From Urechidicola sp. (GTDB lineage: Bacteria > Bacteroidota > Bacteroidia > Flavobacteriales > Flavobacteriaceae), in NCBI GenBank assembly GCA_965248525.1, contig CBDFJO010000003.1, positions 41,727 through 105,726 of the forward strand: 64,000 bases of DNA, read 5' to 3'. Below the pieces are notes generated by a model that made no database searches, was not told the origin of the DNA, and was given only the letters and a program-made list of their open reading frames with translations. A program made the translations under genes and the position numbers. Shown here piece after piece: positions 20,811-63,605 of the stretch (positions within the stretch are counted from its first letter, which is position 1; the number at the start of each line of letters is the position of its first letter).

Positions 20811-21016
20811 TAAAATTTACTAGCAAAACTGTACAAACTAACAAGCAAAGACTTGCTTTTTACTTATATCAAATAAAAGAGGTGATAGTACTTCAAATAA
20901 ACAACTTTAAACCAGCTAAAAATTTAGAATTCACATAAATTTTAAAATAGGTTTTCTCTAAAAATCGCTTATGTCAACTTTTTTGGACTGATTTTATATT
21001 CTTGTGCAACGATTAC
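20811..21016 (+). mobile_element. IS1182-family right-end remnant (~205 bp)
   Basis: Matches the last ~205 bp of the element at 61721-63467; ends cttgtgcaacgattac. Confidence 0.88.
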
Positions 21017-21096
21017 CCGTGTTGTAACCAGTACTTTTCCTAACTATCTTTTTATTCGAGGTGTTGTTGTTAGAATAGTAAAATAATCAATACTAT

Positions 21097-21446
21097 TTAA
21101 GATTTTAAACAACTTCGAATATTACAAAAATGTCCAATAATTGATGTTGAGAATAGAAACATTCCATATTCAAAAATTTCGGCACGTTCTTCGAGCAATA
21201 TGGATATCACAAAACCAGTAAAAACAATCCATAAAAACAGATTAATTCCTTTGGTGAAATTTCATTTTGTAGCTTTATAAATGGAAATAAATGCTGTCAA
21301 AACAAAGCCAAAAGCAATAATTGGATTACTCAGAAAACCAATTCCCATAGCTAAAAATGTAGGAACTGCAAGGCAATGGACGATACAGAGAATAGAACTA
21401 ATAACCCCTAATTTATCTGCCCAATATATTTTTTTGTTTGTATCAT
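21097..21446 (-). pseudogene. MerC-domain membrane protein, inactivated
   Basis: WADKLGVISSILCIVHCLAVP motif; -1 slip in A7 run near start and in-frame TGA at 21262-21264. Confidence 0.7.
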
Positions 21447-22756
21447 TTATTAAATGTTTTATTGTATTCTAGGTATTTTGTTTTATCGACTTTAACGGCA
21501 TTCCAAATGTCCAAAACCATTATTTCAATGCGTTTATCAACCAAATTTTGAATATCATTTCTATACGTTTGGTAATCGTCGTAATGTGTTTCAGATAAAT
21601 GATTGAATTTATTTTGAAAATAGGTCAAAGGATTAAACCAATAGGTTTTAGAAATAAATTCATTTTTAGACTGGCTATCGTCTTCTATATTGGCAGTAGC
21701 ATTTTTCATTACAATATTAATTAACGCTTCCATAGAATTTCGTCGTGCTCTTTTAATACTAATGCTATCTTTTGCTATTTCCGTTTGTTTTAAACTTGGG
21801 TATAAATCAAAAAGTTGCTTATCGATTATTTGGCTTTCTTGTTTATAGATGTCGGCTGTTTTGTCTCTTTTAGTGTCTATAATGTCAATCATTAAATTAG
21901 TTGGTTTTTCAATAGATATCCATTGTTGTATGGCAGCAGGAATAATAAATGCAAAAAGTAACCAAATTCCTATCATTTGTAAAGTATTTGAAATTGTATT
22001 TTCCCCATATTTCAGAATTAAAAAATAAATGACTGTCCAAAATATAAGATAAACTGCTACCCAAATAAAAATATTCCAAAACGTTGTATCTGTTTCAAAA
22101 ACATTGGTAAGCATAGCTCCATAAACTAATAAACCAAACAATATCGACAAAAGTAGTATAACGTAAAACGCAGTTCGTGATAGTATCCACCAATTTTTAG
22201 CCCCTGTTTGTACAAATACGAGTGGTAAAAAACCTTGCTCTGCTTCTAAACCTTTTATATTGTATAATAAAATCAGTAATAAAAGCGGTAATAGAAATAG
22301 GACTACAAATGAAAAATCTAATGTACCTGACTGAATACGCTCTGGATTGGCAATTTCTTTTGCCATATCTGAATCATAAGGACTACTTGATGTGCTAATT
22401 GCTTTATAGAACCCGTATTGTTCTGCTTGACCAATATTATAAACGATAGCTGGCGACGGTTTTTTATAATGGTAGGTTGGCGTATTCCAAATAGCCCAAA
22501 ATGGCTTTGTATTATCTACCCAAGGTCTATCTTTTGGTCCTTTTTCTCCGTTTTCGAAATAAGAGACTATAATTTCTTTTTTGGTTTCTGCTTCTTTAGT
22601 TATCCTTTCGATTTCGGCATTTTGCTTTTCATATAAATCTGCTCCATTTTGTAAACCATAAATACTTGCAATGATAAAAAGTATTAGTGCTACAATTTTA
22701 AAAGGACTACGGACAAAATGTTTATATTCGTATAAAAATATGTTTAAAGGTCTCAT
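21443..22756 (-). CDS. ABC-2 permease-like / DUF3526 membrane protein
   Basis: Multiple TM helices, LDFSFVVLFLLPL, operonic with 22753-24162. Confidence 0.75.
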   Translation of the reverse strand: MRPLNIFLYEYKHFVRSPFKIVALILFIIASIYGLQNGADLYEKQNAEIERITKEAETKKEIIVSYFENGEKGPKDRPWVDNTKPFWAIWNTPTYHYKKPSPAIVYNIGQAEQYGFYKAISTSSSPYDSDMAKEIANPERIQSGTLDFSFVVLFLLPLLLLILLYNIKGLEAEQGFLPLVFVQTGAKNWWILSRTAFYVILLLSILFGLLVYGAMLTNVFETDTTFWNIFIWVAVYLIFWTVIYFLILKYGENTISNTLQMIGIWLLFAFIIPAAIQQWISIEKPTNLMIDIIDTKRDKTADIYKQESQIIDKQLFDLYPSLKQTEIAKDSISIKRARRNSMEALINIVMKNATANIEDDSQSKNEFISKTYWFNPLTYFQNKFNHLSETHYDDYQTYRNDIQNLVDKRIEIMVLDIWNAVKVDKTKYLEYNKTFNK

Positions 22757-24162
22757 CCGTTTTCAATTTTTTTAGTTCCGAAATGAATAAGTATTATAAC
22801 CAGCACTGACCAAAAAGCTAGTAATACCAAGTCTAATAGATAGTTTGGTAAAACTTTGGAAAGCTTAGTGGGTTTATAATCAAAGTCAGGAACAGATTTA
22901 AAAAATCCGTTATCTTCTTTCCAACCCCAATCTCCTGTTTTAGAACCTCCGAAGGTTTGCTTATCGTTCAACATTTTAATAAAAACACGTCTATAATTTT
23001 CTACTTGCAACAAAAATTCTTGATGATGTAAGTTGTCACTAGCCATAAAACCCATACTGGTGTTTTGTAATGAGATAAATGGATTAACAATTCCTCCTAA
23101 TTGAAAGCTTTGCTTTTGTTCACGAAGAATCTTACGATTATTCCCAAAATGCTTGTCCCAAACACTATTTCCGTATTCTTCATCGGCTTGCATACGTATA
23201 CCATCAAAATTTATGGGTAGTTGCGATAAGTCATCTACATCATACTCTTTAAGTACTTTTTCTTTTAATGCTAAGCCTCTTTTGTCTCTTGGGTTGTGAC
23301 CGTCTATACCTGCAGAGCGGTCTTCTTTCATTGCGGTTTGAAATTGGTTTCTACTAGGAAGTGGATGCCATTTTTCTGCAGAACTCATTAAAATATTGGG
23401 TAAAAAAATCGTCCAAATTATCCAAATACCTAACATTGAAGTTAAAGCAAGTGTCGCGTTTTGCCATCGAGCAGAAAAGAAAACAGTAAGTCCACTAATA
23501 GTAAAATAGTATAAGGCGTAGGATAAAAAGAACAATCCTGTTCTGGTTAAAATTTCAGAAGTGATACTTTTAAGATTTAAAATGCCATAAACCACAACAA
23601 CAAAGCTTAATAGCAACAAACTATACAGCCAAACAGAAAGGGTTTTAGATAAAATAATTTGTAATGGTTTTGCACCTTGTAGTATGAGTAATTTTAGTCT
23701 TCCGCTTTGTTTTTCGCTACTAACTGAATTAAAGGCTAAAAAAATGAGTAAAAGTGGAACTATATATTGTAGTAGAAGTGAAGACTTTAATTTTCCAAAT
23801 CTTGAAATCGCCTGCATTTGCGATGCTTCAGAATGTATAATTTCATTTTGCACGTGTCCTTCAACACGAAGTACATTTCCTGTAACACTATTAACACCTT
23901 CATCTAAACTGCTCAATAAATTAGCAGGTTTAAACACATACGTGCCATAATGTGCTGCACTGTGAGGATTCATTTCGTCAATGCTTACCCATTGCTGACG
24001 TACATGGTCTTTAGCACTTTGATGTGTTTGTTCTTGCTTTTGTGTTTGATAATTTCCTAAAAAAACAGAGACTAACAAGATGGAAATAAAAGCAATGCTG
24101 ATACCTAAAAAAATACGACTACGGACTAAAAATCGCCATTCGTTTTTGATGATTTGCAACAT
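22753..24162 (-). CDS. ABC-2 permease-like / DUF3526 membrane protein
   Basis: NPHSAAHYGTYVFKP, SSEKQSGRLKLL. Confidence 0.78.
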   Translation of the reverse strand: MLQIIKNEWRFLVRSRIFLGISIAFISILLVSVFLGNYQTQKQEQTHQSAKDHVRQQWVSIDEMNPHSAAHYGTYVFKPANLLSSLDEGVNSVTGNVLRVEGHVQNEIIHSEASQMQAISRFGKLKSSLLLQYIVPLLLIFLAFNSVSSEKQSGRLKLLILQGAKPLQIILSKTLSVWLYSLLLLSFVVVVYGILNLKSITSEILTRTGLFFLSYALYYFTISGLTVFFSARWQNATLALTSMLGIWIIWTIFLPNILMSSAEKWHPLPSRNQFQTAMKEDRSAGIDGHNPRDKRGLALKEKVLKEYDVDDLSQLPINFDGIRMQADEEYGNSVWDKHFGNNRKILREQKQSFQLGGIVNPFISLQNTSMGFMASDNLHHQEFLLQVENYRRVFIKMLNDKQTFGGSKTGDWGWKEDNGFFKSVPDFDYKPTKLSKVLPNYLLDLVLLAFWSVLVIILIHFGTKKIENG

Positions 24163-24172
24163 AACATTCTTA

Positions 24173-24874
24173 TTAGTTTTGCATAAATTTTAAATACAAA
24201 TTTTCGAGTTCATTAGCACTTACATCTTCACTATTTAGTTCTTTAACTAAAATTCCATTTTTAAGAATACCAATGTGATTACATACCTCACGTACACGAA
24301 AAATATCATGTGAAGCCATTAAAATAGTTGCACCTTCTGAAGCTAATTTTTTTAGAAGAATAGAAAGTTCATTACTCGCTAAAGGGTCTAAACCACTCGC
24401 AGGTTCATCTAATAAATAGACCTTTGCTTTTTTTGCGTAAGCAATAGCAATGCCTACTTTCTGTCTCATTCCTTTGGAATATCCACTTACTTTTTTGGTA
24501 TGTTCCTTAGTTTCTAATCCGCAAATCGTTAGGTAGTTTTCAAGTTCATTTTTAGAATATTTTAATCCTGCTAACTTGCAGAAATAATCTAAATTTTCTG
24601 ATCCAGATAAATAAGGATATAGATTTACATTTTCAGGAATATAGCCAATAAGTTTTCTAGTCTCTTTTGAATTATGGATAGAGTCTATATCATTGATACG
24701 TATCTTTCCAAAATCTGGATTAAGAAACCCCAATAACATATTTATAGTAGTAGATTTTCCTGCACCATTTGCACCCAAAAGTCCTAAAATCTGACCTTTA
24801 TCGACTTCTAAATCTAAGTTTTGAATAGCGATATTTCCTTTAAATGACTTGCTAACGTTTTGTAATTGTATCAT
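24173..24874 (-). CDS. ABC transporter ATP-binding protein
   Basis: GANGAGKST, YSKGMRQ, LDEP, SHD. Confidence 0.92.
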   Translation of the reverse strand: MIQLQNVSKSFKGNIAIQNLDLEVDKGQILGLLGANGAGKSTTINMLLGFLNPDFGKIRINDIDSIHNSKETRKLIGYIPENVNLYPYLSGSENLDYFCKLAGLKYSKNELENYLTICGLETKEHTKKVSGYSKGMRQKVGIAIAYAKKAKVYLLDEPASGLDPLASNELSILLKKLASEGATILMASHDIFRVREVCNHIGILKNGILVKELNSEDVSANELENLYLKFMQN

Positions 24875-24890
24875 AAAAATAGCTTGTTAA

Positions 24891-24944
24891 TGCAACCAAG
24901 TTGCGAAAATAGAAAATAAAATTTGCAATTGCAACACAGTTGCA
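24891..24944. promoter_or_regulatory. Two palindromic TGCAAC-N3-GTTGC operator-like boxes
   Basis: tgcaaccaagttgcg (24891-24905) and tgcaacacagttgca (24930-24944) between divergent ABC and Fur-like genes. Confidence 0.55.
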
Positions 24945-24959
24945 TTAATTTTGTCATTA

Positions 24960-25263
24960 ATAAAAATTATTAGAAAAACAAAAGCTGTAACTATAGTACT
25001 CCAAATTTTTGAAGAGAGAAACGAAGCCAAATTAGTAGTGCGTCTCATAGAACTTTTAATGGAAAAGATGGTTTAAAGTGGTATGCTAAATGTGAGGGAT
25101 GTTCTGCTAATCATCATTCGGACAAGCATCCACATTTCCAATGCACTAAATGCGATAAAGTCGAGTGTTTGTCTTTAGATATTAAAATTCCTACCATAAA
25201 AATCATAAAGTAGATTCTTCAGACATTCTCTTAATGGGGCAATGTGAAGTTTGTAGTTTGTGA
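24960..25263 (+). pseudogene. Fur-family metalloregulator, decayed
   Basis: IIRKTKAV start without ATG; KWYAKC...HPHFQCTKC...GQCEVC; internal deletion and frameshifts. Confidence 0.72.
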
Positions 25264-25274
25264 GTATTGGTTAC

Positions 25275-25327
25275 AACATATGGATAACCCTATTGTGGTT
25301 ATATTTTATATTCTTGTCAACGATTAC
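25275..25327 (-). other. attI-like head fused to IS1182 terminal remnant
   Basis: aac-atatggataaccctattgtggttatat then tattcttgt(g)caacgattac. Confidence 0.7.
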
Positions 25328-25600
25328 TTGTGTTAGCAAAAGTGCTTATAAATTACAATGTTCAGCTTTCTCTCTTTTTTCTTCTGTAAAACGAAAGGTA
25401 AATTCAAATTCTAGTTCACTGATTTCTTTTCTATTTTCATAGTTTTCAATTTCAGTTAAACCAAGTTCACACTCTGAATTATTACCATAAATAAAAACAC
25501 GACTACCACTAATCTCTACAAATGGATCATAATTATTTATTAAAGGTTTTTTACCGTATTCATAAGCATTAAATAAGCGATTTAAAATTATTTCGGATGT

Positions 25601-26623
25601 TTAAATACCTAAGCTATTAAACAACTCTTTTAATTCCTTCATAGAAGGCCTAGGCGCATTAGGAGTTATGATATTTCCTTTTGGATCGATTAAAATGAAT
25701 CTTGGAATCCCTTCTATCTTATAGTTTTTTATAAACTCAGATTTCCCTGCTTTGTCAGCTAATAATTGAATTCCCCCTAGTTTTTTTTCTTTAATCATCG
25801 TTTTCCATTTGTCATAATCTTTAGGTTTGTCTATAGAAAGACTTACAAACTCAATGTTTTTACCGTGGTAAGCTTTCTCTACTTCTTTTAAGTAAGGAAT
25901 TTCAGCTAGACAAGGACGGCACCAAGTAGCCCAAACATCAATATAGACATACTTTCCTTTTAAATCATCTAAAGAAGTCTTTCCACCAGCATTGTTTTCA
26001 TATGCTATAAATTTTGGAGAGGTTTTTCCTTTTCCTAAAGCAGTTTTTATGTAAGATGCCTTTTCTTGAAGACTTCCTAGATATTTCTTTAATCTGGCAA
26101 ATCCTAATTTCTCGTTTGCAACAAAAGCAGTATCTAAACCAGATACTCCATCAAGGTTTTTCATGAAATCACTTTCAACAGTTTCTAATTTTGCAACGAA
26201 ATTTTCTTTGCTCATCTCAAACATAGTTTTATTTGCAAGAAGAGCCTCTTGGTTTAATATTTTTTTAGCTAAATAGTTATTAGCCTCAGCACCACTTCCA
26301 GTATAAACAATAGTTTCATCAAACTGCTTCGTGTCTAAAGTTAAATGTACATCTTGACCATTTTTAAGGTAAAGATCAGTATCTTCTGTCCCATCGGATA
26401 ACCAAAAACCACCAGTTACTACTTTTAAAGTATCACTAAAAGCACCATCAGTAGCAACAGTAATTCGCTTTTTAAAGTTTCCGTCTGTATCTGATATGAC
26501 TAAGGAGTCAGAATTTTGATTTGTTATTTTTCCTGAAAACGTAACATAGTCCTTAGCCTCTTGTTTACAGGCAACTACTATTAAAGCAGCAATAGTCAAG
26601 TACATTAATTTTTTTATTTTCAT
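25601..26623 (-). CDS. TlpA-family thioredoxin-like lipoprotein, copy 1
   Basis: Lipobox VVAC; WATWCRPC; IPRFILIDPKG. Confidence 0.88.
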   Translation of the reverse strand: MKIKKLMYLTIAALIVVACKQEAKDYVTFSGKITNQNSDSLVISDTDGNFKKRITVATDGAFSDTLKVVTGGFWLSDGTEDTDLYLKNGQDVHLTLDTKQFDETIVYTGSGAEANNYLAKKILNQEALLANKTMFEMSKENFVAKLETVESDFMKNLDGVSGLDTAFVANEKLGFARLKKYLGSLQEKASYIKTALGKGKTSPKFIAYENNAGGKTSLDDLKGKYVYIDVWATWCRPCLAEIPYLKEVEKAYHGKNIEFVSLSIDKPKDYDKWKTMIKEKKLGGIQLLADKAGKSEFIKNYKIEGIPRFILIDPKGNIITPNAPRPSMKELKELFNSLGI

Positions 26624-26666
26624 AATTTTTTGTTTTAAAGGTTAATGTTCATTTTACATTTTTACT

Positions 26667-26720
26667 AACATATGTATAACCCTATTGTGGTTATATTTTA
26701 TATTCTTGTGCAACGATTAC
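26667..26720 (-). other. attI-like head fused to IS1182 terminal remnant
   Basis: aac-atatgtataaccctattgtggttatat then tattcttgtgcaacgattac. Confidence 0.7.
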
Positions 26721-26990
26721 TTGTGTTAGCAAAAGTGCTTATAAATTACAATGTTCAGCTTTCTCTCTTTTTTCTTCTGTAAAACGAAAGGTAAATTCAA
26801 ATTCTAGTTCACTGATTTCTTTTCTATTTTCATAGTTTTCAATTTCAGTTAAACCAAGTTCACACTCTGAATTATTACCATAAATAAAAACACGACTACC
26901 ACTAATCTCTACAAATGGATCATAATTATTTATTAAAGGTTTTTTACCGTATTCATAAGCATTAAATAAGCGATTTAAAATTATTTCGGA

Positions 26991-28013
26991 TTAAATACCT
27001 AAGCTATCAAACAACTCTTTTAATTCCTTCATAGAAGGCCTAGGCGCATTATGAGTTATGATATTTCCTTTTGGATCGATTAAAATGAATCTTGGAATCT
27101 CTTCTATCCTATAGTTTTTTAAAAACTCAGATTTCCCTGTTGTTGTTCTGTCAGCTAATAATTGAATTCCCCCTAGTTTTTTTTCTTTAATCATCGTTTT
27201 CCATTTGTCATGATCTTTAGGTTCGTCTATAGAAAGACTTACAAACTCAATGTTTTTACCGTGGTAAGCTTTCTCTACTTCTTTTAAGTAAGGAATTTCA
27301 GCTAGACAAGGACGGCACCAAGTAGCCCAAATATCAATATAGACATACTTTCCTTTTAAATCATCTAAAGAAGTCTTTCCACCAGCATTGTTTTCATATG
27401 CTATAAATTTTGGAGAGGGTTTTCCTTTTCCTAAAACAGTTTTTATGTAAGATGCCTTTTCTTGAAGAATTCCTAGAAATCTCTTTAATCCGACAAATCC
27501 TAATTTCTCGCTTGCAACAAAAGCAGTATCTAAACCAGATACTCCATCAAGGTTTTTCATAAAATCACTTTCAATAGTTTCTAATTTTGCATCGAAATCT
27601 TCTTTGCTCATCTCAAGCAGAGTTTTATTTGTAAAAAGATCTCCTTGGTTTAATACTTTTTTAGCTAAATAGTTATTAGCCTCAGCACCACTTCCAGTAT
27701 AAACAACAGTTTCATCAAACTGCTTCGTGTCTAAAGTTAAATGTACATCTTGACCATTTTTAAGGTAAAGATTAGTCTGTTCTTTCCCATCTTGTAACCA
27801 AAAACCACCAGTTACTACTTTTAAAGTATCACTAAAAGTACCATCAGCAGCAACAGTAATTCGCTTTTTAAAGGTTCCGAATCCTATGAGTAAGGAGTCA
27901 GAATTTTGATTTGTTATTTTTCCTGAAAACGTAACATAGTCCTTAGCCTCTTGTTTACAGGCAACTACTATTAAAGTAGCAATAGTCAAGTACATTAATT
28001 TTTTCATTTTCAT
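26991..28013 (-). CDS. TlpA-family thioredoxin-like lipoprotein, copy 2
   Basis: Paralog of 25601-26623; WATWCRPC. Confidence 0.88.
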   Translation of the reverse strand: MKMKKLMYLTIATLIVVACKQEAKDYVTFSGKITNQNSDSLLIGFGTFKKRITVAADGTFSDTLKVVTGGFWLQDGKEQTNLYLKNGQDVHLTLDTKQFDETVVYTGSGAEANNYLAKKVLNQGDLFTNKTLLEMSKEDFDAKLETIESDFMKNLDGVSGLDTAFVASEKLGFVGLKRFLGILQEKASYIKTVLGKGKPSPKFIAYENNAGGKTSLDDLKGKYVYIDIWATWCRPCLAEIPYLKEVEKAYHGKNIEFVSLSIDEPKDHDKWKTMIKEKKLGGIQLLADRTTTGKSEFLKNYRIEEIPRFILIDPKGNIITHNAPRPSMKELKELFDSLGI

Positions 28014-28078
28014 AATTTTTTGTTTTAAAGGTTTAAAGGTTAATGTTCAAAGGTTAATGTTCATTTTATATTTTTACT

Positions 28079-28127
28079 AACATACGTATAACCTATTGTG
28101 GTTATATTTTATACGTCCGCAAATGTA
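28079..28127 (-). promoter_or_regulatory. Array head: attI-like site with TAnnTTTG promoter box firing into the array
   Basis: Minus strand tacatttg (28120-28127) ... tataaccacaataggttata-cgtat-G|TTAGT. Confidence 0.68.
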
Positions 28128-28431
28128 CAATTAATTTCTATTAATTCAAGTACTGTTTAATTTATTTTTTAGATGTACAATTATATTACGAATAAGGCAA
28201 AAAATAGAAGCTTATTACAGGGCAAACTCACACTTTATATTTCAAGAAAGTTATCTTGCTGAATATAAAGAGGTTATTATTTTTCAAATTCTTGATTTTA
28301 GAAATCTTACATTTTTAACACATTAATTATCAGCAAAATTTAAAAAGGTATGAGTTTGCCCTGGGTTTATTATGATATGGCATATCTGTCTTTGCAAGAA
28401 GAACAAAGATATAATTTTAAAAACAACTTTT

Positions 28432-29094: not shown

Positions 29095-29100
29095 TATTTG

Positions 29101-50680: not shown

Positions 50681-51178
50681 CTATGGTTTTTTAGCCATTA
50701 TTAGCATTCGTTTTAGTTCTTCTTTATTCGGTATTTTTCCTTTTAATTTTTCAGGTAAATTGTGTGTCAGTTTATATTCCGAAACGCCAATAGGTTTAGA
50801 ACTCGTTCTTAAAGCATATTCTACTTCAACATCATCTTTTTCAGGACAAAGAATTATTCCGATTGTTGGGTTATCGTCCTCTATTTTTACTTGTTCGTCC
50901 AAAAGTTCCAAATAGAAATTCATCTTTCCTGCAAATTCAGGTTCAAATTCGACTGTTTTTAACTCAATTGCTACTAAACATTTTAATATTCTGTGATAGA
51001 ACAGTAAATCAATAAAATATTCTTTTTCATTTAGTTTTAACTTATATTGATTACCAATAAAGCAAAAACCATATCCAAGTTCCATTATTAAATTTCGGAT
51101 ATTCTCTATTAACTTGTTTTCTAGTTGTCTTTCCAATATTGGAGAAGTGATTCCTAGAAAATCTAAGTTGTATTCCTC
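50681..51178 (-). pseudogene. DUF1016/YhcG PD-(D/E)XK nuclease, 5'-truncated
   Basis: YNLDFLG...IDLLFYHR..LVAIELK...GKMNFYL; frame starts without ATG at a REP-like repeat. Confidence 0.78.
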
Positions 51179-51312
51179 GTTGGCGCAAGCGTCACGCTTG
51201 TGCCGTTAACCAAACTCAAACCATTTATTATCTTATTATAATTTCTACTCATTATTTTTTTATCTTCTTAATCTTGCTGTCACGAGCAAAAGATGCTCGC
51301 GCTAGCGAGGGG
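51175..51312. repeat. Divergent pair of REP-like palindromes
   Basis: cctcgttggcgcaagcgtcacgcttgtgc (51175-51203) and cacgagcaaaagatgctcgcgctagcgagggg (51281-51312). Confidence 0.6.
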
Positions 51313-51393
51313 AATTTTAAAATAGGGTTTCTCTAAAAAAATCGCTTAGGTCAACTTTTTTGGATTGATTTTATATTCTTGTGCAACGATTAC
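51312..51393 (+). mobile_element. IS1182-family right-end remnant (~80 bp)
   Basis: Near-identical to the end of 61721-63467. Confidence 0.88.
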
Positions 51394-52570: not shown

Positions 52571-52592
52571 GATTTTCGTTCATATTGCCACC

Positions 52593-52653
52593 AACATATG
52601 GATAAGTGCAGTAATTTTTCCTTCAGAAAAATTATTGTCATTTATCTGATGTT
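52593..52653 (-). other. attC-like site
   Basis: aac-atatg-gataagtgcagtaatttttc/gaaaaattattgtcatttatc-tgat-gtt. Confidence 0.72.
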
Positions 52654-53061
52654 GTGTTTAGTCTTTCTATTTTGCTTTTCTTATTATTTTCAAATATAAG
52701 CAAAATAGAAAGACGTAGTCCAAAAAATGAAGCAATAGTATCAAAGGAATTAACTATAAATTTGTTTGTAAATAAGATAGGTCATTATATTTGTATAATT
52801 AATGTCTTATTTGCAAAATTATAGAAAATTTAAATCGATTATTTTATTTTTTGCTTTAAAACTTGATTTTCTCAAAAAAAATCAGTTTCTTTACTTAAGT
52901 TTTATAACATTCACAATGTTTGAAAGAGCAATCTTTCACAGTGTAACTGTCAAACTTAATGTAGAATTTGTTTCTAAAAATTCTAAAGCAAAAAAATAAA
53001 ATTTTCCTGCTATAATTAAAATTTGTAGTTAGTTTCAAACTTCATTTTTGGATTAAATCAC

Positions 53062-53119
53062 AACGGTGAGTATATGCGTAGTGCGACCGTTTAGGGAGCA
53101 TTATCGCATATACATTGTT
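53062..53119 (-). other. attC-like site
   Basis: aac-ggtga-gtatatgcg...cgcatatac-att-gtt. Confidence 0.8.
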
Positions 53120-53138
53120 CTCTGCTGGCTTTCTTTCG

Positions 53139-54224: not shown

Positions 54225-54257
54225 ATGTTATTTGTTTTTTTGTTTTTGCTTGCAGAG

Positions 54258-54316
54258 AACGGTGAGTATATGAATCGTAGCATCCCGCAGGGTGCTATGA
54301 TTTCATATACATTGTT
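54258..54316 (-). other. attC-like site
   Basis: aac-ggtga-gtatatgaa-tcgtagcatccc/gggtgctatga-ttcatatac-att-gtt. Confidence 0.82.
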
Positions 54317-54326
54317 AGTGGTCGTG

Positions 54327-55728: not shown

Positions 55729-55779
55729 TGTTTAAATTTATAGTTTAAAAATAAGTATTTAATTTTTCTCATGACCACT

Positions 55780-55899
55780 AACGTTGCCTGTATGGTTAGT
55801 GGCGTTTTAAAATTACTGTACTTTCGGTTAAGCACAAACTTTGTTTTAAGTATTGAACTTTGAACTTAGCACTATGTAGCCATTAACTATACAGATTGT
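55780..55899 (-). other. Long attC-like site, split by the group II intron
   Basis: aac-gttgcc-tgtatggttagtggc...gccattaactataca-gatt-gt|t; homologous to 60766-60887. Confidence 0.82.
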
Positions 55900-56420
55900 G
55901 TGTGCCTTGAATGGTAAATATACTAAAAGTTCTTTAAAAAGAAGTATTTATTTAAGAGAAAGTCCAAAGGGTGTAAGTCCCTTATGCGCAGGAGTAACAT
56001 TTTGAAGCCAAGTAAGTCGCAAGGGTGCTAACTGCGAAGTTATATCTGAAGTAAGCGAGACTACGTTGTCTGAACTGACGAACAGAAACGGGATACGAGG
56101 CATAGTTATTTAGGATAAGTAAGCACACCATTGCAAAGTCCTACGAATACCAAAAGAATAACTATGTAGATTCCGCAGGCTTAGACAAAAGGACATTTAC
56201 CTTACCAAGGGAGGTCTCTGTAATCACGAGATGATATAGCAGAGAAGTCAGCAGAAGTCATAGTACTTGTAGGAAAACGAGCCATAAAACAAATGGAGGT
56301 CTCACAAGCAAGCAAGGACAGAACATTAAACGTTTGCGTGAATTTGAATTCATAGGTTAAACAACGTACAGTAGTATAGGGGACTTCTAAAATTTAATTC
56401 ATTGTTAATCAGATAATTAT

Positions 56421-57503
56421 ATGTATCTTTCGTACTATAATCAAAACTGTAATAAAATGTATAAACCCAGAGGGAAAAAAGGATTATTTGATGAAGAATT
56501 TACAAAAGATCGCTTATCATCAATAGGCAATCCATTAGAAAACATAAGTAAAGTTATTGATTTTGAATTATTTAGAGAATTGCTAGAGCATAAGTTACTC
56601 AACACTAACAAAAAAAGCAATGCAGGAGCAAAACCTTATGACTTGGTAATGATGTTTAAAATATTGATACTTCAACGTTATTATGGTTTAGGAGATAGTC
56701 AAGTTGAATATCAAATATTAGATAGAATGAGTTTTAAAACATTTTTAGGATTAGAGACTGGCGATAAAGTACCAGATGAAAAAACCGTATGGAGTTTTAG
56801 AGAACGTGTAACAAAAACAGGTTTAGTAGAAGAATTATTTGAGCAGTTTACTTTCTTTTTAGAAGAAAAAAAACTCATATTTAATGAAGGACAATTGATT
56901 GATGCCAGTTTTACAGTAGCACCACGCCAAAGAAACACAAGGAAAGAAAACAAGAAAATAAAAGACGGTAAGGGTAATGAATTATGGAATGACAAACCCA
57001 ACAAGAAAAAACATAAAGATATTGATGCACGTTGGACAAAGAAAAATGGTGAAACTTTCTTTGGTTATAAAAATCACGCAAAGGTAGGCACTAAAAGTAA
57101 ATTCATTAACACTTACACAGTAACAGACGCCTCGGTTCACGACTCACAAGCTTTGGATGACTTGCTTACCGAAAAAGATAAAAACCAAGATTTACACGCA
57201 GATAGTGCATACACAGGCAAAGAGCAAGATAAGATTATCAAAAAATATGAAATGAAAAATAAAGTACACGAAAAAGGCTATCATAATAAACCATTGACAG
57301 AGAAACAAAAAGCAAGCAACACTAAAAAATCAAAAATTAGAGCAAGAGTAGAGCATGTATTTGGCTTTATGGAGCAAAGTATGAAAGGTTTAGTTTTAAA
57401 ATCAGTAGGAATTATAAGAGCATCAGGAATAATTGGTTTAATCAACTTAACCTACAATTTATTTAGGTATGAACAAATCAAAAGATTAAACATAACTTAC
57501 TGA
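56421..57503 (+). CDS. IS5-family transposase
   Basis: PDEKTVWSFRE, IDASF, DIDARW, ADSAY, RARVEHVFG; likely start at MYKPRG. Confidence 0.9.
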   Translation: MYLSYYNQNCNKMYKPRGKKGLFDEEFTKDRLSSIGNPLENISKVIDFELFRELLEHKLLNTNKKSNAGAKPYDLVMMFKILILQRYYGLGDSQVEYQILDRMSFKTFLGLETGDKVPDEKTVWSFRERVTKTGLVEELFEQFTFFLEEKKLIFNEGQLIDASFTVAPRQRNTRKENKKIKDGKGNELWNDKPNKKKHKDIDARWTKKNGETFFGYKNHAKVGTKSKFINTYTVTDASVHDSQALDDLLTEKDKNQDLHADSAYTGKEQDKIIKKYEMKNKVHEKGYHNKPLTEKQKASNTKKSKIRARVEHVFGFMEQSMKGLVLKSVGIIRASGIIGLINLTYNLFRYEQIKRLNITY

Positions 57504-57574
57504 TAGACGGATAGATTGGATAGATGGATAGATGGATAGATGGATAGATGGATAGATGGATAGATGGATAGATG
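57502..57574 (+). repeat. 8-bp tandem repeat (GATAGATG) inside IS5
   Basis: 7 perfect copies at 57519-57574 plus 2 degenerate copies. Confidence 0.95.
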
Positions 57575-57756
57575 GAATTTGATGTTTTGTGTATCAAAAT
57601 CAAAAAATATTACTACCTTTGTAGTGTTAATCTTTTTTCTAAAAAAGATAAAAAAGGGTTCTCATCTTTTTTAGAAAACTGAAAAACCAATTTTTAGAAC
57701 TCCCCTATAGTTTAACTTAACGGACAGAGGAGCAATAACAAAGTAACAATTTAATT

Positions 57757-58156
57757 ATGGAATTAATAACAAAAGTTTTAGAGTATTCAAATATCAAGGC
57801 TCACTATTTTTGTACGTGGTTGGGTAAACTATTATAAGTATGCCAATATGACTACAAAGTTAAAATCGTTAGATACTTGGGTTCGTAGTAGGTTGCGTTA
57901 CTGCATTTGGAAACATTGGAAAAAGCCCAACAAACGTATGCGTAGTTATATCCGTTTGGGTATTGCTAAAGGTCAGGCTTATGCTTGGTCACGTTCACGG
58001 ATGGGTGGCTGGGCAACGGCATTAAGCCCAATAATGAAAACCACAATAACAGTCGAAAGACTATTAAAACGTGGTTATCTTTCTTTTTCTGCTCAATTTC
58101 AAATGTCGTTTAGGTTAATACCAAAAGACATTCAATTAAAATTATCTTTTGTTTAA
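57757..58156 (+). pseudogene. Intron-encoded protein with the RT domain deleted
   Basis: MELITKVLEYSNIKA N-terminus, then out-of-frame jump to RGWVNYY...RSRLRYCIWKHWKK (maturase X domain); no YADD. Confidence 0.82.
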
Positions 58157-58248
58157 TGAACCGCCAAGTACGAGAACCGTACGCTTGGTGGTGTGAGAGG
58201 CGCACTCTCCTCAAGATTGAGGAGAGCCGCCTACTCGATTAGCAAACG

Positions 58249-59286
58249 TTATTTTTTATTTTCTTCTATTATCTCTTTTCTTTTTTGAGATATTTCTAAA
58301 TTGTATTTCCACTTTTTATTGTAATCAACATTTTCTCTCATTTTTGCATACTCAATCGCTTTGTCATAATTACCAAGAGCATAATTCACTCCAGAAATAT
58401 TGCTCAATATACTCCAGTAAACCTTTTTTTGTTTTTTATCAGTTTTATCCTTTATTTTTTTTAGTTCGTTTTCAAAATGAGTTAAACTCTCTTTTGCAAT
58501 GCTCTTTAAGTTTTCTTTATAGGTATCGCTAAATTTCAATTTATTCATTTCGATTAATTTTTCAACTTGGTCATTGTTTTTTATTCCAAATTTTTCTTCC
58601 TTTTTAATAAAAAATAAATTTATTCTTTTGGCTTCATAATAAGTAGAAAATTTTGATTTTAAAGATTTAGAAATATCTCCTATTACATAATCTGCTTGGT
58701 TCATGTTTTTACTAGAACGATATTCAATTGCATTTGCATTATACTGCTTTTTGATTTGAGATAATGCTATTCCATTAGATTTTATGGATGCATTATTAAA
58801 AACTTCAGCACTTTCTGTTTTGCTTTTTTGTGTAAAAACTTTATCAAAAAGAATATTTTTTTTGGTGTCTGTTACTACGACCTTAATTGATGAAGATATT
58901 TCAACAATACCTGTATAAGTGTTTTTTGCATCTTTACCATAGTTTTTTTTCTCTTTTACACTTAATATGTGTTTTATACCTAAATCAGTTAATTCTATAA
59001 TGAAATCAGGATTTTCTGATTTTGTAAAACCAGGGATTTTTAATGAACGGTCAATAAGGATCGAAATATTTGTGTTCTTAAATGAAGAAGACTTTTGTTC
59101 TCCGTTTATTATTAATCTTACATTATCACTATTAGAATTTACTTTTACAGCGTAATTTTGATACTCAACAGGTAATTTAATTTCTGGGTAATGTTTTTCT
59201 TCAATATACCAACCTTTATTTTTTGCGTTTTGTGCTGATAAATTGATACTTACTAATGTTAATAGTAATAAAATGAATTTTTTCAT
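58249..59286 (-). CDS. Cassette-borne secreted hypothetical protein (C-terminal TPR-like)
   Basis: Signal peptide MKKFILLLL...SA; ends match gt|tagcaaac and gtttgctaac. Confidence 0.7.
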   Translation of the reverse strand: MKKFILLLLTLVSINLSAQNAKNKGWYIEEKHYPEIKLPVEYQNYAVKVNSNSDNVRLIINGEQKSSSFKNTNISILIDRSLKIPGFTKSENPDFIIELTDLGIKHILSVKEKKNYGKDAKNTYTGIVEISSSIKVVVTDTKKNILFDKVFTQKSKTESAEVFNNASIKSNGIALSQIKKQYNANAIEYRSSKNMNQADYVIGDISKSLKSKFSTYYEAKRINLFFIKKEEKFGIKNNDQVEKLIEMNKLKFSDTYKENLKSIAKESLTHFENELKKIKDKTDKKQKKVYWSILSNISGVNYALGNYDKAIEYAKMRENVDYNKKWKYNLEISQKRKEIIEENKK

Positions 59287-59308
59287 ATTTTTTGTTTTAA
59301 TGTTTGCT

Positions 59309-59357
59309 AACGTATGGATAACCCTATTGTGGTTATATCTTATATGTCTGCAAGTTA
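59309..59357 (-). promoter_or_regulatory. Array head: attI-like site with degenerate promoter box
   Basis: Minus strand taacttg...ataaccacaatagggttatccatac-G|TTAGC; matches 28079, 26667 and 25275. Confidence 0.65.
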
Positions 59358-59497
59358 CTATTTTTTAATTCATCCAAAGGACTGCTAATATTTTTATGAA
59401 ATAAAAGTTATAGTTGCTATTTAAAGTTGCGTAATACGATATTAGAAAGTTAAGTTGGTATTGTGTTTTTTTTTGTACTATTGTTTACAAAAAAAAT

Positions 59498-59697
59498 ATG
59501 CCTTTAGTACAACCTTTAGCTGCCGATGCAAATCCTGATGTAAAAAAATTAGCCGAATTCTTTAACGAAACACTCGGTTTTTGTCCAAATTCGGTTTTAA
59601 CAATGCAAATTCGACCAGAAATTGCACGCTCATTTATAAATATGAATATGGCAGTAATGGATAATCAAGGTAGCGTAACATCAGCTTTAAAAAGAAT
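59498..59697 (+). pseudogene. AhpD/carboxymuconolactone decarboxylase family, 3'-truncated
   Basis: FFNETLGFCPNSVLTM...TSALKRM then unrelated sequence; CxxC region missing. Confidence 0.72.
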
Positions 59698-59796
59698 GAC
59701 CATTAACAATTCCGTGCTATTGAGTGCTTCCACTCCTTTAGCTGCCAATTTTTCTCTTGGTTTGTCATTATTGGGTATTTCTGATATTTTTCTCAC
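59692..59796 (-). pseudogene. radC: RadC N-terminal fragment
   Basis: GTG-RKISEIPNNDKPREKLAAKGVEALNSTELLMVIL, truncated against the ahpD remnant. Confidence 0.72.
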
Positions 59797-60314
59797 TTCT
59801 TTTTGGCATCCGTTTTAAAACCTATCCGTTCTCTGTTCTTGTGTTCTATTTGAGTTTTATCTTTTTTTAGCAAGTAATTAATGGCTTCATAAACATCCTT
59901 GAATTGTTTATTATACTTGGCTTCTAAGGCTTTGAGTTTTTCACCCATATCGCTGTATTGCATAGCGAATTGCTTAAGTGTAATAAAAGCACGAACTATG
60001 GCAATACTGGTTTGGCGAGCTTTTTTACTCTTGAGTACGTTGGCGAGCATTGTAACTCCGTGTTCAGTAAAGGCAAGTGGCAAGGCAGTTTTGGGTCGTT
60101 TTGCTGGGTATGTCATCACAATTTGTGATAACATCTCCCATTCGGTTTTAGAGAGCTTAAACATAAAATCTTCTGGAAAAATATCAGCGTTACGCTTTAC
60201 GGCCTGATTGAGTACTCTGGTTTCTACTTCGTATAACTCGGCCAGATCGAAGTCGAGCATTATTCGTTGTCCGCGTATTTCATAAATTCTATTTTGTATA
60301 ACTTGTAAATCCAT
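59793..60314 (-). CDS. ORF6N (KilA-N-like) domain protein
   Basis: IRGQRIMLDFDLAELYEVET..LNQAVKRN...FTEHG. Confidence 0.88.
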   Translation of the reverse strand: MDLQVIQNRIYEIRGQRIMLDFDLAELYEVETRVLNQAVKRNADIFPEDFMFKLSKTEWEMLSQIVMTYPAKRPKTALPLAFTEHGVTMLANVLKSKKARQTSIAIVRAFITLKQFAMQYSDMGEKLKALEAKYNKQFKDVYEAINYLLKKDKTQIEHKNRERIGFKTDAKKK

Positions 60315-60596
60315 CTATTTTTTTCTTACTCTTTTTAGGGTTAATTCAAGACAATCTTCGGCCAATTTTTCGCCATTTACAGTATCAAATACCTTGTCTG
60401 AGAGCCAAAGAATAAGCAATTGCTTTTCACTCGTTTTGAAAAGTTTAGCAAGTTTGGGCAGATAAGTTCTACTTATAGGCTTTTCTCTGCTTTCCATCTT
60501 GCTAATGTATGCCGTATCCACTTCCAATTTAGCGGCTACTTCTCTTTGCTTGAGCCCATTTTGCTCTCTCAATTCTTTGAGTTTTTGGCTCAACAT
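60315..60596 (-). CDS. XRE-family HTH regulator
   Basis: LKELRE...QREVAAKLEVDTAYISKMES. Confidence 0.85.
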   Translation of the reverse strand: MLSQKLKELREQNGLKQREVAAKLEVDTAYISKMESREKPISRTYLPKLAKLFKTSEKQLLILWLSDKVFDTVNGEKLAEDCLELTLKRVRKK

Positions 60597-60765
60597 ATGA
60601 CCAAATTATTCTTGTCCATTATTGGGCAAATATACAATTATCATACAGAAATTCAATTCGTTTTTGTAAAAGCAAAATTAGGCTCTTTTGGTTTTTTGAG
60701 CGTTGGCTTTTGTTATTGGCAAAAACCAAATGTGTCTGATGTGGGTGGGCTTCTATATGCCCTAC

Positions 60766-60887
60766 AACGATTTCTGTATGGTTAGTGGCGTTTTAAAGAA
60801 CCGAAATTTTCGGTTTATCACAGAACTTTATTAAAAGAATTGAACTTCAAATTTAGTACTTTGTAGCCATTAACTATACAGATTGTT
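60766..60887 (-). other. Long attC-like site
   Basis: aac-gatttc-tgtatggttagtggc...gccattaactataca-gatt-gtt. Confidence 0.82.
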
Positions 60888-60997
60888 ACAAGCCCTTTAT
60901 TGTATTTCAGTCAACAAGTTAAACTCCATTCGCGTTAGCATCTTTTTCATTTTGATTGATTTTTCCGTTGATTAAGATTTCTGCAAATAGTTATTTA

Positions 60998-61621
60998 TCA
61001 TAGAGAATAATTAAAACTTATTTGGAATACGGAACTTTTTGTATTATCTCTTTCAATTATTGCATAATTATAGCGTAATCCAATTTGATAATCATTTGAA
61101 AATGAGTAACCAATTCCTAAATTAACAGCCATTTCAAATTTATCAAAACTACCATTTCCATATGATAAATTATCATTATTATCAGTTACATTTTGATTTA
61201 CTACATATCCTGCTTGTGGCCCAATCTCAATACTGATATTGTTATTAAAATGGTAATCCAACATAATTGGGAGTAAAATTAAATTTTGTTTTATATCTGC
61301 TTTATAATTAATATTATTAAGTGGCTCATCAGAACCAATTAAACCTGTTTTAAGTTCATATTCTGCACTCTGAGTAGAGAAAAGTAATTCAGGGTTCAAT
61401 ATTAAATTATTAGTTAAATTTAAACTTAAAAACCCACCAATATGAAAACCAATTTTTCCATTAAAATCTGCCGGAAATTCATTAGGTATATCTTTTCCTA
61501 AAATAAAAGTTGAATAATTAATTCCTGCTTTTATTCCAAACTTAATTTTGTTATCTTGTGAGTTAGCATTAAGACTAAACAGCAGTATTAATATTCCAAA
61601 AAGTAATATGTTTTTTTTCAT
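60998..61621 (-). CDS. PorT-like outer-membrane beta-barrel protein (cassette-borne)
   Basis: Signal peptide; FGIKAGINYS; terminal FNYSL; ends gttacaagcc/ggcttgtaac. Confidence 0.78.
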   Translation of the reverse strand: MKKNILLFGILILLFSLNANSQDNKIKFGIKAGINYSTFILGKDIPNEFPADFNGKIGFHIGGFLSLNLTNNLILNPELLFSTQSAEYELKTGLIGSDEPLNNINYKADIKQNLILLPIMLDYHFNNNISIEIGPQAGYVVNQNVTDNNDNLSYGNGSFDKFEMAVNLGIGYSFSNDYQIGLRYNYAIIERDNTKSSVFQISFNYSL

Positions 61622-61664
61622 TTTTAAATTTATTATGTTAATTTTTATTCGTTTTATGGCTTGT

Positions 61665-61720
61665 AACGTTCCGTGTATGGTGTCGTAGCATCCCGAAGGG
61701 TGCTATGCACTATACACATT
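61665..61720 (-). other. attC-like site split by IS1182
   Basis: aac-gttccg-tgtatggtg-tcgtagcatccc/gggtgctatg-cactataca-catt|IS|catt-gtt. Confidence 0.82.
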
Positions 61721-63467
61721 GTGCCTGTTGCACAAGATACAATTAATTTCACAAAAATAATAATAATAAGGTTTTAAATTATTTTGTTAATCCATTGATA
61801 TTAAGTATCTTTATACATGCAAGGAAAGAAAATATACCAAGAAAAGTTGTTTGCTAATTTTCAGTTAAGCGACCGAGTTCCCAAGAACAATTTTTATCGA
61901 AGATTACATAAAGTTTTAGATTTAGACTTTTTGTATAAACTCACAAGACCATTTTATGGAGAGAGTGGACAGGAGAGTATTGATCCTATAGTTTTCTTTA
62001 AACTTTGTTTAGTAGGATATTTAGAAAACATCATAAGCGATCGCAAATTAATCTCTCATTGTGCAATGCGGTTAGATATTTTGTATTTTATAGGTTATGA
62101 TATTGATGAGCCATTACCTTGGCATTCTACCATAAGTCGTACCCGACAATTATATACAGAAGCAGTATTTGAAGAATTTTTTACCAAAGTATTACAAATG
62201 TGTATAAACAAAGGGATGGTTTCTGGTCATACCCAAGCCATAGATTCTGCACCTATAAAAGCCAATGCTTCTATGGATACATTGGAACTAAAAGTACCTG
62301 CCGAAGAACTAGAAGATTATTTACTCAAGGTTCGTCATATTAGCGATGTAGATAAACCCAAGAATACACGTAAAGCAAAAGAGAATAAGGCAAGTAAGGA
62401 GCAACAAACTGTTACTGCAAAGCCAAGTGAATTACAAGCCATAAAAAGCAGAAATAAAAAATGGTCTAAAGACCAGAATTATCGTCCAGGGGCAGGAAAT
62501 AAGGGATCTAAATATACATCCAACAAAACCCATTATAGTCCAACCGATCCAGATGCTCGGATAAGTGTCAAGCCAGGCAAAGCTAGGAAGCTCAACTATA
62601 GTAGTCAACTAAGTGTAGATACGGGTCATCATGTGATAACAGATATTAAAGCCTATCATGCAGATAAAAAAGACAGTCAATGTTTAGAAGATATCACTGT
62701 TCGATTAAAAAAGCGCTTAGATAAAAACGGATTACTTTGGCAAAACATATTGGCAGATACAGGCTATAGTGATGGTAGCAATTATGCCTTTTTAGAAACC
62801 GAAGCCTTAGAAAGTTATATCCCACCACATGGAACTTACAAAGGAGGACCAGAAGGTTTTTTATATGATAAAGAACAAGATTGTTATATATGTCCACAAG
62901 GAAAAACAATACCGTTTAAAAAAGTGTTTAGAGATTATAAAACAGGTACAAAAAAGAAAGAATATAGATGTTCATCACTAATTTGTAAGACTTGCCCTAT
63001 AAAGCAACAATGTTTGGGCAAAACTGCACAAGAAAAGAAGTTTACTGTAACCTATTATCGAGAAGAATATGAACGCAATAACAAAAGAGTAAACTCCAAA
63101 CAAGGACGTTATATGAAATACAAACGCAGTAGTACTGTTGAGCCTGTTTTTGGGACCCTCACTCAATTTATGGGACTCCGTAAAATAAATACGATTGGTA
63201 TTCAACAAGCCAACAAGGTCATGCATATGGCTGCAATTGCTTATAATATCAAGAAATACCTAAAATTCACTAGCAAAACTGTACAAACTAACAAGCAAAG
63301 ACTTGCTTTTTACTTATATCAAATAAAAGAGGCAATAGTACTTCAAATAAGCAACTTTAAACCAGTTAAAAATTTAGAATTTGTATGAATTTTAAAATAG
63401 GGTTTCTCTAAAAAATCGCTTAGGTCAACTTTTTTGGATTGATTTTATATTCTTGTGCAACGATTAC
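61721..63467 (+). mobile_element. IS1182-family element, complete
   Basis: 16-bp imperfect TIR GTgcctGTTGCACAAG / rc GTaatcGTTGCACAAG; 4-bp CATT duplication. Confidence 0.88.
61817..63388 (+). CDS. IS1182-family transposase
   Basis: GQESIDP, PWHSTISR, AIDSAP, TDPDAR, LADTGY, CxxCP..C, RSSTVEPVFG. Confidence 0.9.
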   Translation: MQGKKIYQEKLFANFQLSDRVPKNNFYRRLHKVLDLDFLYKLTRPFYGESGQESIDPIVFFKLCLVGYLENIISDRKLISHCAMRLDILYFIGYDIDEPLPWHSTISRTRQLYTEAVFEEFFTKVLQMCINKGMVSGHTQAIDSAPIKANASMDTLELKVPAEELEDYLLKVRHISDVDKPKNTRKAKENKASKEQQTVTAKPSELQAIKSRNKKWSKDQNYRPGAGNKGSKYTSNKTHYSPTDPDARISVKPGKARKLNYSSQLSVDTGHHVITDIKAYHADKKDSQCLEDITVRLKKRLDKNGLLWQNILADTGYSDGSNYAFLETEALESYIPPHGTYKGGPEGFLYDKEQDCYICPQGKTIPFKKVFRDYKTGTKKKEYRCSSLICKTCPIKQQCLGKTAQEKKFTVTYYREEYERNNKRVNSKQGRYMKYKRSSTVEPVFGTLTQFMGLRKINTIGIQQANKVMHMAAIAYNIKKYLKFTSKTVQTNKQRLAFYLYQIKEAIVLQISNFKPVKNLEFV

Positions 63468-63605
63468 CATTGTTGTGTTTTCGTTTTTTATTTTCATTTC
63501 GTTTTAACGTTGGGGCAAACATACTCTTTGGCAAGTTTTGGCTCGTGTGGTTGGTTTTTGAGCGACTTGACAATGTGTATGGTTGCTGGGTGATGGAATT
63601 CATCT

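Follow-up and report, generated by a model that had tools for sequence, protein, structure and literature searches.

Two mechanistically distinct lineages of mobile elements have previously been known to home to attC sites, namely the IS1111-attC elements, which use a seekRNA, and the group IIC-attC introns, which use RNA pairing. Both insert near the 5' (R''/L'') end of attC and antisense to the cassettes (PMC3001079), the IS1111 enzyme being of the DEDD type and guided by its seekRNA (PMC11187229), and the IS1111-attC elements form a clade defined by its target (PMC3001079, PMC11187229). A taste for structured targets is furthermore documented among IS1182-family insertion sequences (IS), where IS1272 and TnSha1 enter hairpins or inverted repeats that often lie just downstream of genes (PMC5678879, PMC4923244); Siguier 2015, as cited in both of these papers, is the source for palindromic targets in the family. 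Here we describe a 64,000-nt stretch of a Urechidicola sp. genome (Flavobacteriaceae; contig CBDFJO010000003.1, positions 41,727 to 105,726; hereafter the window), in which an IS1182-family element occupies attC-like sites of a cassette array. We conclude, with a probability of roughly 85%, that a Bacteroidota clade of this family, carrying a DDE transposase, homes to the attC-like recombination sites of cassette arrays. Site-specific insertion into cassette hairpins, which a preliminary description of the window had proposed, is well supported both there and in more than 40 other genomes, and it is specific in orientation as well; this is observed in the position, duplication, orientation and family of the insertions, in the conservation and covariation of the target, and in its array context.

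The element is an intact IS1182-family IS, and its parts in the window are the following:

61721..63467, + strand: intact IS1182-family element, 1747 bp, with imperfect terminal inverted repeats and a 4-bp duplication
61817..63388, + strand: transposase open reading frame (ORF), 523 amino acids, the sole ORF of the intact IS (NF033551, Pfam domains)
61721..61737, + strand: left terminal inverted repeat GTGCCTGTTGCACAAGA, agreeing in 13 of its 17 positions with the right end in reverse complement
63451..63467, + strand: right terminal inverted repeat TCTTGTGCAACGATTAC
61717..61720, + strand: left CATT, copy of the target duplication
63468..63471, + strand: right CATT, copy of the target duplication, followed by the R''-type core GTTGTGT (63472-63478)

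The family and the DDE type had been named correctly from the outset, since the transposase scores 343.5 bits against the NCBIfam model of the IS1182 family (NF033551, cut-off 270) over model positions 4-487 of 488. Its single ORF furthermore carries the Pfam domains DUF772 (PF05598), DDE_Tnp_1_6 (PF13751) and DDE_Tnp_1 (PF01609), all above their cut-offs. IS1182-family elements in ISfinder are about 1.3-1.95 kb long and have terminal inverted repeats, and the present element agrees with the family in the curated model, in its N-terminal DUF772 and DDE_Tnp_1_6-type catalytic domain, and in its size and terminal repeats. Compared directly, the two ends (GTGCCTGTTGCACAAGA and GTAATCGTTGCACAAGA) are identical at 13 of 17 positions. 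The core of the left repeat, GTTGCACAAG, is kept in relatives of the IS, and the tip of the right repeat, GRYTAC, is unlike the left tip, an asymmetry that is likewise kept in the homing relatives.

A blastn search with the intact copy as query found four additional pieces of the IS in the window, all of them right ends and all on the + strand:

20808..21016, + strand: truncated IS, comprising the final 209 bp at its right end, then CCGT GTTGTAA (93% in blastn, against IS positions 1538-1747)
25290..25327, + strand: remnant of a right end, then TTGT GTTAGCA (clearly IS in no more than the final ~25 nt)
26682..26720, + strand: right-end remnant, a duplicate of the 25327 junction, followed by TTGT GTTAGCA (final 26 nt are the IS end)
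51312..51393, + strand: truncated IS, comprising the final 82 bp at its right end, then CGGT GTTGGTG (98.8% in blastn)

Four arbitrary nucleotides and GTT (N4+GTT) directly follow all five right ends, the flank of the intact copy being CATT GTTGTGT. The blastn hits and the flanks thereby agree with the preliminary description, in which five right ends were said to share one orientation, opposite to the cassettes, each 4 nt before a GTT; the CATT duplication at 61717-61720 and 63468-63471 was likewise described there and is found as stated. The transposase is encoded on the + strand and the neighbouring cassette ORFs on the - strand. In the two short remnants, convincing IS sequence is limited to the last 25-26 nt, and these remnants belong to a tandem duplication (25328-26720 and 26721-28113, 95.5% identical over ~1.3 kb), so that, as had also been claimed, the window records four independent events. 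With GTT making up 0.0217 of the + strand trinucleotides, N4+GTT would by chance be found at four of four events with a probability of about 2e-7. Positions 28100-28113 hold a third vestige of this duplicated junction, GGTTATATTTTATA. The duplicated segment holds a cassette for a thioredoxin/AhpC-like protein of 340 amino acids together with its site bearing the IS remnant.

To follow the element beyond the window, loci were gathered by transposase similarity alone, ignoring context, in a scan of one genome per prokaryotic species. This gave 77 loci from other genomes (labelled with L below), with transposases 63-80% identical to that of the window, mainly from Flavobacteriaceae and furthermore from Marinifilum, Labilibaculum and a few other lineages. 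Locating the ends by the conserved repeat core plus 6 nt yielded 77 unique right and 72 unique left ends. Among the right ends, T is found at +4 in 76, G at +5 in 74, T at +6 in 75 and T at +7 in all 77, and an exact GTT occupies +5 to +7 in 73 right flanks (flanks of at least 40 nt); the chance of at least 74 of 77 is about 5e-119. The common consensus of the 72 left flanks is ATKAWTTWTANM-YNTT. A perfect 4-bp duplication is present in 32 of the 54 complete copies with readable flanks, where random pairing of flanks would give 11.7%, and the flanks of the other 22 differ with a mismatch spectrum like that of random pairings. These 22 copies may have arisen by exchange between IS copies, with point mutation as another possible source. 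Specificity for orientation is strong and not absolute, the orientation relative to the site being constant in every insertion except one.

Three extra metagenome copies, 84-89% identical, conform to this pattern, one of them cleanly as CTTT-IS-CTTT GTTGTAA in a short hairpin, and a metagenome contig with an identical IS has the flanks ...TATACATT-IS-CTTT GTTGGCA. In a complete Marinifilum chromosome, N4+GTT is found at nine of ten copies and an attC-like hairpin at six. An outward Bacteroidetes-type promoter (TAnnTTTG) is not conserved at the left ends, occurring in only 6 of 65. Solo ends number 15 right and 14 left across all loci; there is hence no systematic excess of solo right ends across them, and the excess in the window is local. 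Near-identical family members were furthermore seen on short contigs (L011, L013, L040, L063, L075 and L077) binned as Campylobacterota, Desulfobacterales, Planctomycetota, Thermodesulfobacteriota and a Woesearchaeota metagenome-assembled genome, and these bins reflect either mis-binning or horizontal spread beyond Bacteroidota.

Empty target sites were rebuilt by connecting the left flank with the part of the right flank that follows the repeat. Most of them fold, with RYYYAAC, a spacer, a long imperfect stem, a second spacer and GTTRRRY in this order, and the distance to the partner arm falls into classes of ~49, 109-117 and 165-179 nt, corresponding to sites of ~66, 130 and 190 nt. For 39 of 66 left flanks the partner arm pairs more strongly than at the 5th percentile of random controls, with the AAC correctly placed in 33 of the 39. 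When 20 of the 130-nt sites are aligned (RNAalifold), the consensus has 21 pairs, with compensatory changes in 14 of them; AAC and GTT are invariant in 20 of 20, and two positions are conserved G-T wobbles. The duplicated 4 nt correspond to alignment columns 130-133, that is the last stem pair and the 3-nt spacer, immediately 5' of GTT. A covariance model, R1, built solely from foreign sites outside the window, matches seven sites in the window, all on the + strand:

20021..20151, + strand: unoccupied attC-like site, ~130-nt class (43.2 bits, E 3e-8)
52589..52657, + strand: unoccupied attC-like site, short class (18.2 bits, E 0.03; also AAC/GTT duplex scan)
53058..53123, + strand: unoccupied attC-like site, short class (29.2 bits; also AAC/GTT duplex scan)
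54254..54320, + strand: short-class attC-like site, unoccupied, paralogous to the one that the IS occupies (37.1 bits; also duplex scan)
55776..55899, + strand: attC-like site with a group II intron after ATTGT, i.e. at GT/T of the R'' core (match 55776-55905, 69.7 bits)
60762..60891, + strand: unoccupied attC-like site, ~130-nt class (96.2 bits, E 5e-21)
61661..61720, + strand: 5' part of the IS-interrupted attC-like site, with R' core TTGTAAC, spacer and both hairpin arms (match 61661-61726, 34.4 bits, E 4e-6)

The last of these, when rebuilt, folds as a short-class hairpin. R1 was used in place of a strict AAC/GTT duplex scan, which gave three sites in the window and an equal number of chance matches on the other strand; a loose regular expression for the 3' end of the site was uninformative in this AT-rich DNA. 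Across the 953 kb of loci R1 matches 157 sites, of which 141 lie on the IS strand and many in arrays of 8-15, and 38 of 67 unique left junctions adjoin a match, 33 of the 38 at the same offset. The longest ORF is antisense to the site strand in 56 of 58 intervals between sites (median spacing 769 bp), and in 125 of 153 sites the fold of the site strand is more stable than that of its complement, a count partly biased by how the model was constructed. The GTT is at its expected position in 96 of 110 unoccupied matches. Base composition from -4 to +23 around GTT is equal in occupied and unoccupied sites, and no extra sequence requirement of occupied sites was found by composition, so that the IS takes sites of this family without further requirement.

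The repeat itself is more elaborate than a plain hairpin. The ~190-nt sites hold a conserved internal hairpin, GCCAAATTT...AAATTTGGCGGACTTGG, in species of different orders (seen in the IS left flanks of L004, L010, L038, L046, L050, L054-L058 and L001), and another internal hairpin, GGAAAATCCGCAGGATTTTCC, is common to many 130-nt sites, so that the centre of the site is not freely variable. A conserved GT followed by a T-run (GTTRNNNNNNGTTTTTT) is furthermore found at +10 to +19 after GTT in occupied and empty sites of the window and the loci alike, whereby the repeat reaches ~15 nt past the R'' core towards the upstream cassette.

These sites share with attC the inverse end cores RYYYAAC...GTTRRRY, an imperfect hairpin with unpaired spacers that is kept by compensatory changes and in which one strand folds better than the other, and a place in arrays of co-oriented ORFs with one site each. 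attC sites are ~57-141 nt long, a range that includes the ~66 and ~130-nt classes and that the ~190-nt class exceeds. A scan of the window at Rfam gathering thresholds gave no attC-type match, its only match being the group II intron, and no tyrosine recombinase was found in the window. Nor was a canonical integron integrase found next to the attC-like arrays. The recombinases beside two Kordia arrays (L022 and L015) score 195 and 188 bits against TIGR02249, below its cut-off of 265, and pass only NF040815, 'tyrosine recombinase/integron integrase', with 223 and 221 bits against 220. When the L022 recombinase is aligned to IntI1, ~45 residues are absent opposite the additional domain of IntI1. 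The targets are therefore termed attC-like sites of integron-like arrays, an integrase with the IntI-specific domain not having been found. The array-head recombinases are related to IntI/XerA, have an N-terminal extension of ~156 amino acids, and may belong to a distinct integron-like system in Flavobacteriia; the IntegronFinder 2.0 paper lists almost no integrons in Bacteroidetes. The two Kordia enzymes are 428 amino acids long (L022 13432-14718 and L015 12716-14002, both on the - strand) and are found at the array head, co-oriented with the cassettes, and recombinase fragments are found in L017 (13400-14526) and L059 (15383-15985).

The window holds a second kind of element in these sites:

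55900-58239, + strand: group II intron (Rfam RF02001 at 56028-56200)

Its 5' exon ends in ...ATTGT at 55899 and its 3' exon restarts with TAGCAAACGTT at 58240, so that intron and IS share a strand, the intron lying 2 nt deeper in the site. The intron is itself interrupted by an IS5-family transposase ORF (56421-57503; NF033581, 270 bits), which is followed by a tandem repeat of GGATAGAT (~57510-57575). Between the IS5 gene and the 3' end of the intron there is only an ORF of 102 amino acids (57848-58156), and the intron therefore probably lacks an intact intron-encoded protein.

As to how the IS might reach its target, the site presents, on the non-coding and better-folding strand, 5'-RYYYAAC, a 5-nt spacer, a ~16-bp imperfect stem, a variable centre, the returning stem, a 3-nt spacer and GTTRRRY-3'. 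The transposase would cut with a 4-bp stagger, whereby the duplicated YNTT comprises the last stem base pair and the 3-nt spacer 5' of the GTT core, and the left end of the IS joins the stem side and the right end the GTT side, which places the transposase gene antisense to the cassettes. We infer a DDE chemistry with this stagger, of either the cut-and-paste or the copy-out kind. Since the junction is identical in all three size classes, recognition is probably local to the L''-spacer-R'' region and would involve at least the T-GTT core, possibly helped by distortion of DNA at the palindrome. Both IS repeats contain the heptamer GTTGCAC, which resembles R'' and lies 6 nt from the tip, and the two tips differ in the homing clade (GTGCCT and GTAAYC); one DNA-binding surface may thus read both the IS ends and the target, although heptamer and tip asymmetry are leads and not evidence. 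A more far-reaching reading, speculative and in our view rather improbable, is that the transposase reads the site as an integron integrase does, by an R''-type core (GTTRRRY, present as GTTGCAC in its own two repeats) at the base of a folded or cruciform hairpin, which would make it a DDE enzyme recognising structure together with core, and that the hundreds of sites it marks constitute an unrecognised Bacteroidota-wide integron-like cassette system, with an IntI/XerA-like recombinase devoid of the IntI-specific domain and with homing parasites of its own, the IS clade and the group II intron.

Several observations weigh against homing of this clade to attC-like sites or narrow its reach. Of the 67 left junctions, 29 have no significant R1 match, many of these being of the ~190-nt class or having lost the 5' arm, and of the 38 matches that do adjoin a junction 20 are seeds of the model and in that respect circular, and 18 are not seeds. 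Five insertions (L007, L048, L049, L053 and L071) lie beyond canonical hairpins, N4+GTT being present at four of them, and the one reversed copy (L015, 1650-3330) sits in a bona fide site, with the duplication CGGT and an R1 match at 1523-1656. Two Aquimarina relatives (L067 9959-11645 and L068 117-1803; 64% identical) have symmetric tips, GTGCCT at both ends, duplicate TATA, ignore GTT and sit outside attC-like sites, and since this lineage ignores GTT, homing must be regarded as a trait of a clade and not of the family; these relatives suggest that target specificity has switched in the course of the clade's history. Furthermore, copies in the source genome were counted within the 64-kb window only, the mechanism is read from end products only, and the disabling of sites and formation of deletions discussed below are consequences that we infer.

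The preliminary description attributed the targeting to structure, and in its pure form this would mean that the transposase recognises an extruded or single-stranded hairpin, as proposed for IS1272, with sequence irrelevant. IS1272 and TnSha1 do enter hairpins with little sequence conservation (PMC4923244, PMC5678879), and compensatory changes maintaining the target stem, insertion at the unpaired spacer at the stem base in all three size classes, and a site strand that outfolds its complement in 125 of 153 sites would all be in agreement with such a mechanism. Unlike IS1272, however, position and orientation are here fixed to the nucleotide beside an invariant T-GTT, and the four off-hairpin insertions that keep N4+GTT, as well as the nine of ten Marinifilum copies that do so with only six attC-like hairpins, argue for a sequence readout of the GTT core. 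Because the site family conserves its sequence as well as its structure, comparative data cannot separate the two, yet recognition of structure alone seems unlikely, and the stem may be required in addition to GTT. The converse notion, that the enzyme reads a short duplex motif of about TTATAN-YNTT-GTTR which is only incidentally part of the attC-like repeat, the hairpin being irrelevant, is a possibility to be taken seriously, even if we would not adopt it. It draws on the same off-hairpin insertions, on the near-invariance of T at -1 and of GTT, on the GTTGCAC heptamer, which would fit one surface reading ends and target, and on the relative with symmetric tips having another simple target, TATA. 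But N4+GTT, at a GTT frequency of 0.0217, is far too common to account for near-exclusive residence in attC-like sites, the left-flank consensus is that of the L'' arm, and a preference for hairpins is documented in the IS1182 family.

The position of the copies could also be ascribed to random insertion followed by survivorship, if copies last only in harmless spacers between cassettes, and intergenic hairpins are indeed plausible safe havens in which IS remnants pile up. Selection cannot, however, hold the junction to a single nucleotide and a single orientation at more than 70 independent sites in more than 40 genomes, and other intergenic DNA of the same loci is unused, which makes this explanation extremely improbable. 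Hardly more credible is the notion that the IS moved as a cassette or by the tyrosine recombinase of the array, with the 4-nt repeats as a shared crossover core. The AAC/GTT heptamers in the IS ends do resemble R cores and tyrosine recombinases adjoin some arrays, but the 4-nt repeats vary from copy to copy (CATT, TGTT, CGTT, CGGT, TTTT, TACT, TAAT, GTGT) and must therefore come from the target, the junction lies 4 nt before GTT and not at the G/TT crossover, and the element has a full-length DDE transposase and terminal inverted repeats. Homing of an IS1182-family clade to attC-like sites by its own transposase is hence the reading that we retain.

For the arrays, such homing would have consequences. 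An insertion separates the R'' core from the remainder of the site by 1.7 kb, which should block formation of the paired R box, disable the site and fuse the two cassettes beside it. Since the IS copies are co-oriented, recombination between them would delete the cassettes in between, and deletion of this kind fits the 22 hybrid-looking flanks as well as the breaks at 20808, where IS position 1538 is fused directly to the upstream region of the cassette ORF 20158-20664, and at 51312. The locking of cassettes and seeding of deletions put forward in the preliminary description are accordingly plausible, their support, the 22 of 54 non-matching flanks and truncated window copies that abut deletions, being indirect. 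With the truncated IS at 51312 the array reaches its distal edge; to the left of this IS there is a short ORF with only the C-terminal domain of a YhcG nuclease, followed by OsmC and RecJ genes. That ORF (50681-51136, - strand), of which only the C-terminal PDDEXK domain of a YhcG-like nuclease is left, lies directly beside the truncated IS, and together they look like a deletion at the array edge. The left part of the window, outside the array, holds a DDE transposase ORF of 425 amino acids (2260-3537, - strand; PF01609 only) that is unrelated to the IS1182 element.

The IS1182-family element occurs in dozens of marine Bacteroidota genomes besides the window, and its clade would be a third attC-homing lineage, with a protein-only DDE transposase, acting at most 2 nt from the intron site and in the same antisense orientation, in which case the junction would be a strongly favoured niche. 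The clade offers a simple system for nucleotide-precise, oriented targeting by a DDE transposase, its flanks are a free probe for attC-like cassette arrays in a phylum with almost no integrons in surveys, and co-oriented copies offer a tangible way in which cassettes of such arrays could become fixed or be deleted; the finding should thus be of moderate to high relevance to integron and transposition researchers. A search of the full-text literature for IS1182 with attC, integrons and Bacteroidota or Flavobacteria turned up no paper that connects IS1182 with attC, ISfinder notes and subscription literature being beyond its reach, and as far as we found, oriented homing of the attC type at a fixed position has previously been described only for unrelated mobile elements.

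Of these, the IS1111-attC group (ISPa21, ISPst6 and ISKpn4; IS110/IS1111 family) likewise inserts at the R''/L'' end and antisense to cassettes, which is a shared behaviour and not membership. To our knowledge IS1111-attC elements have not been reported to duplicate their target, and the present element matches only DDE/DUF772 families, duplicates its target in 32 of 54 copies and has terminal repeats. The IS1111-attC elements have a DEDD transposase, subterminal repeats and a circular intermediate (PMC11187229), whereas the present IS has a DDE transposase, terminal repeats and a 4-bp duplication. Their known hosts are furthermore Proteobacteria, whereas those of the present clade are Bacteroidota. 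The group IIC-attC introns such as S.ma.I2 are similar in entering attC on its bottom strand, against the direction of cassette transcription (PMC3001079), and the group II intron of the window shares with the IS the kind of site and the strand, lying 2 nt downstream of where the IS inserts. They are however retroelements, which read the stem-loop and short exon-binding sequences by RNA-DNA pairing and which have no transposase and make no duplication. IS1397 and ISKpn1 (IS3 family) target palindromic units. Fixed-position homing to structured intergenic repeats is also known from insertion sequences that target repetitive extragenic palindromic (REP) sequences or bacterial interspersed mosaic elements (BIME), for instance ISPa11 of the IS1111 family (PMC11187229; REP targets, PMC3971601), but these belong to other IS families and use other repeats, which are not recombination sites of cassette arrays. 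Within the IS1182 family, the targeting of hairpins or palindromes by IS1272 and TnSha1 (PMC5678879, PMC4923244) does not favour the earlier notion of a fresh convergent invention. IS1272 nonetheless shows little selectivity for sequence, enters its targets in either orientation without duplicating them and removes part of the hairpin, whereas the present clade keeps to a single defined repeat family, a single nucleotide position and a single orientation, and duplicates 4 bp while leaving the target hairpin intact and not replacing the stem-loop. To its family's predisposition for hairpins the clade thus adds a new specificity for attC-like sites, one that is oriented and precise to the nucleotide.

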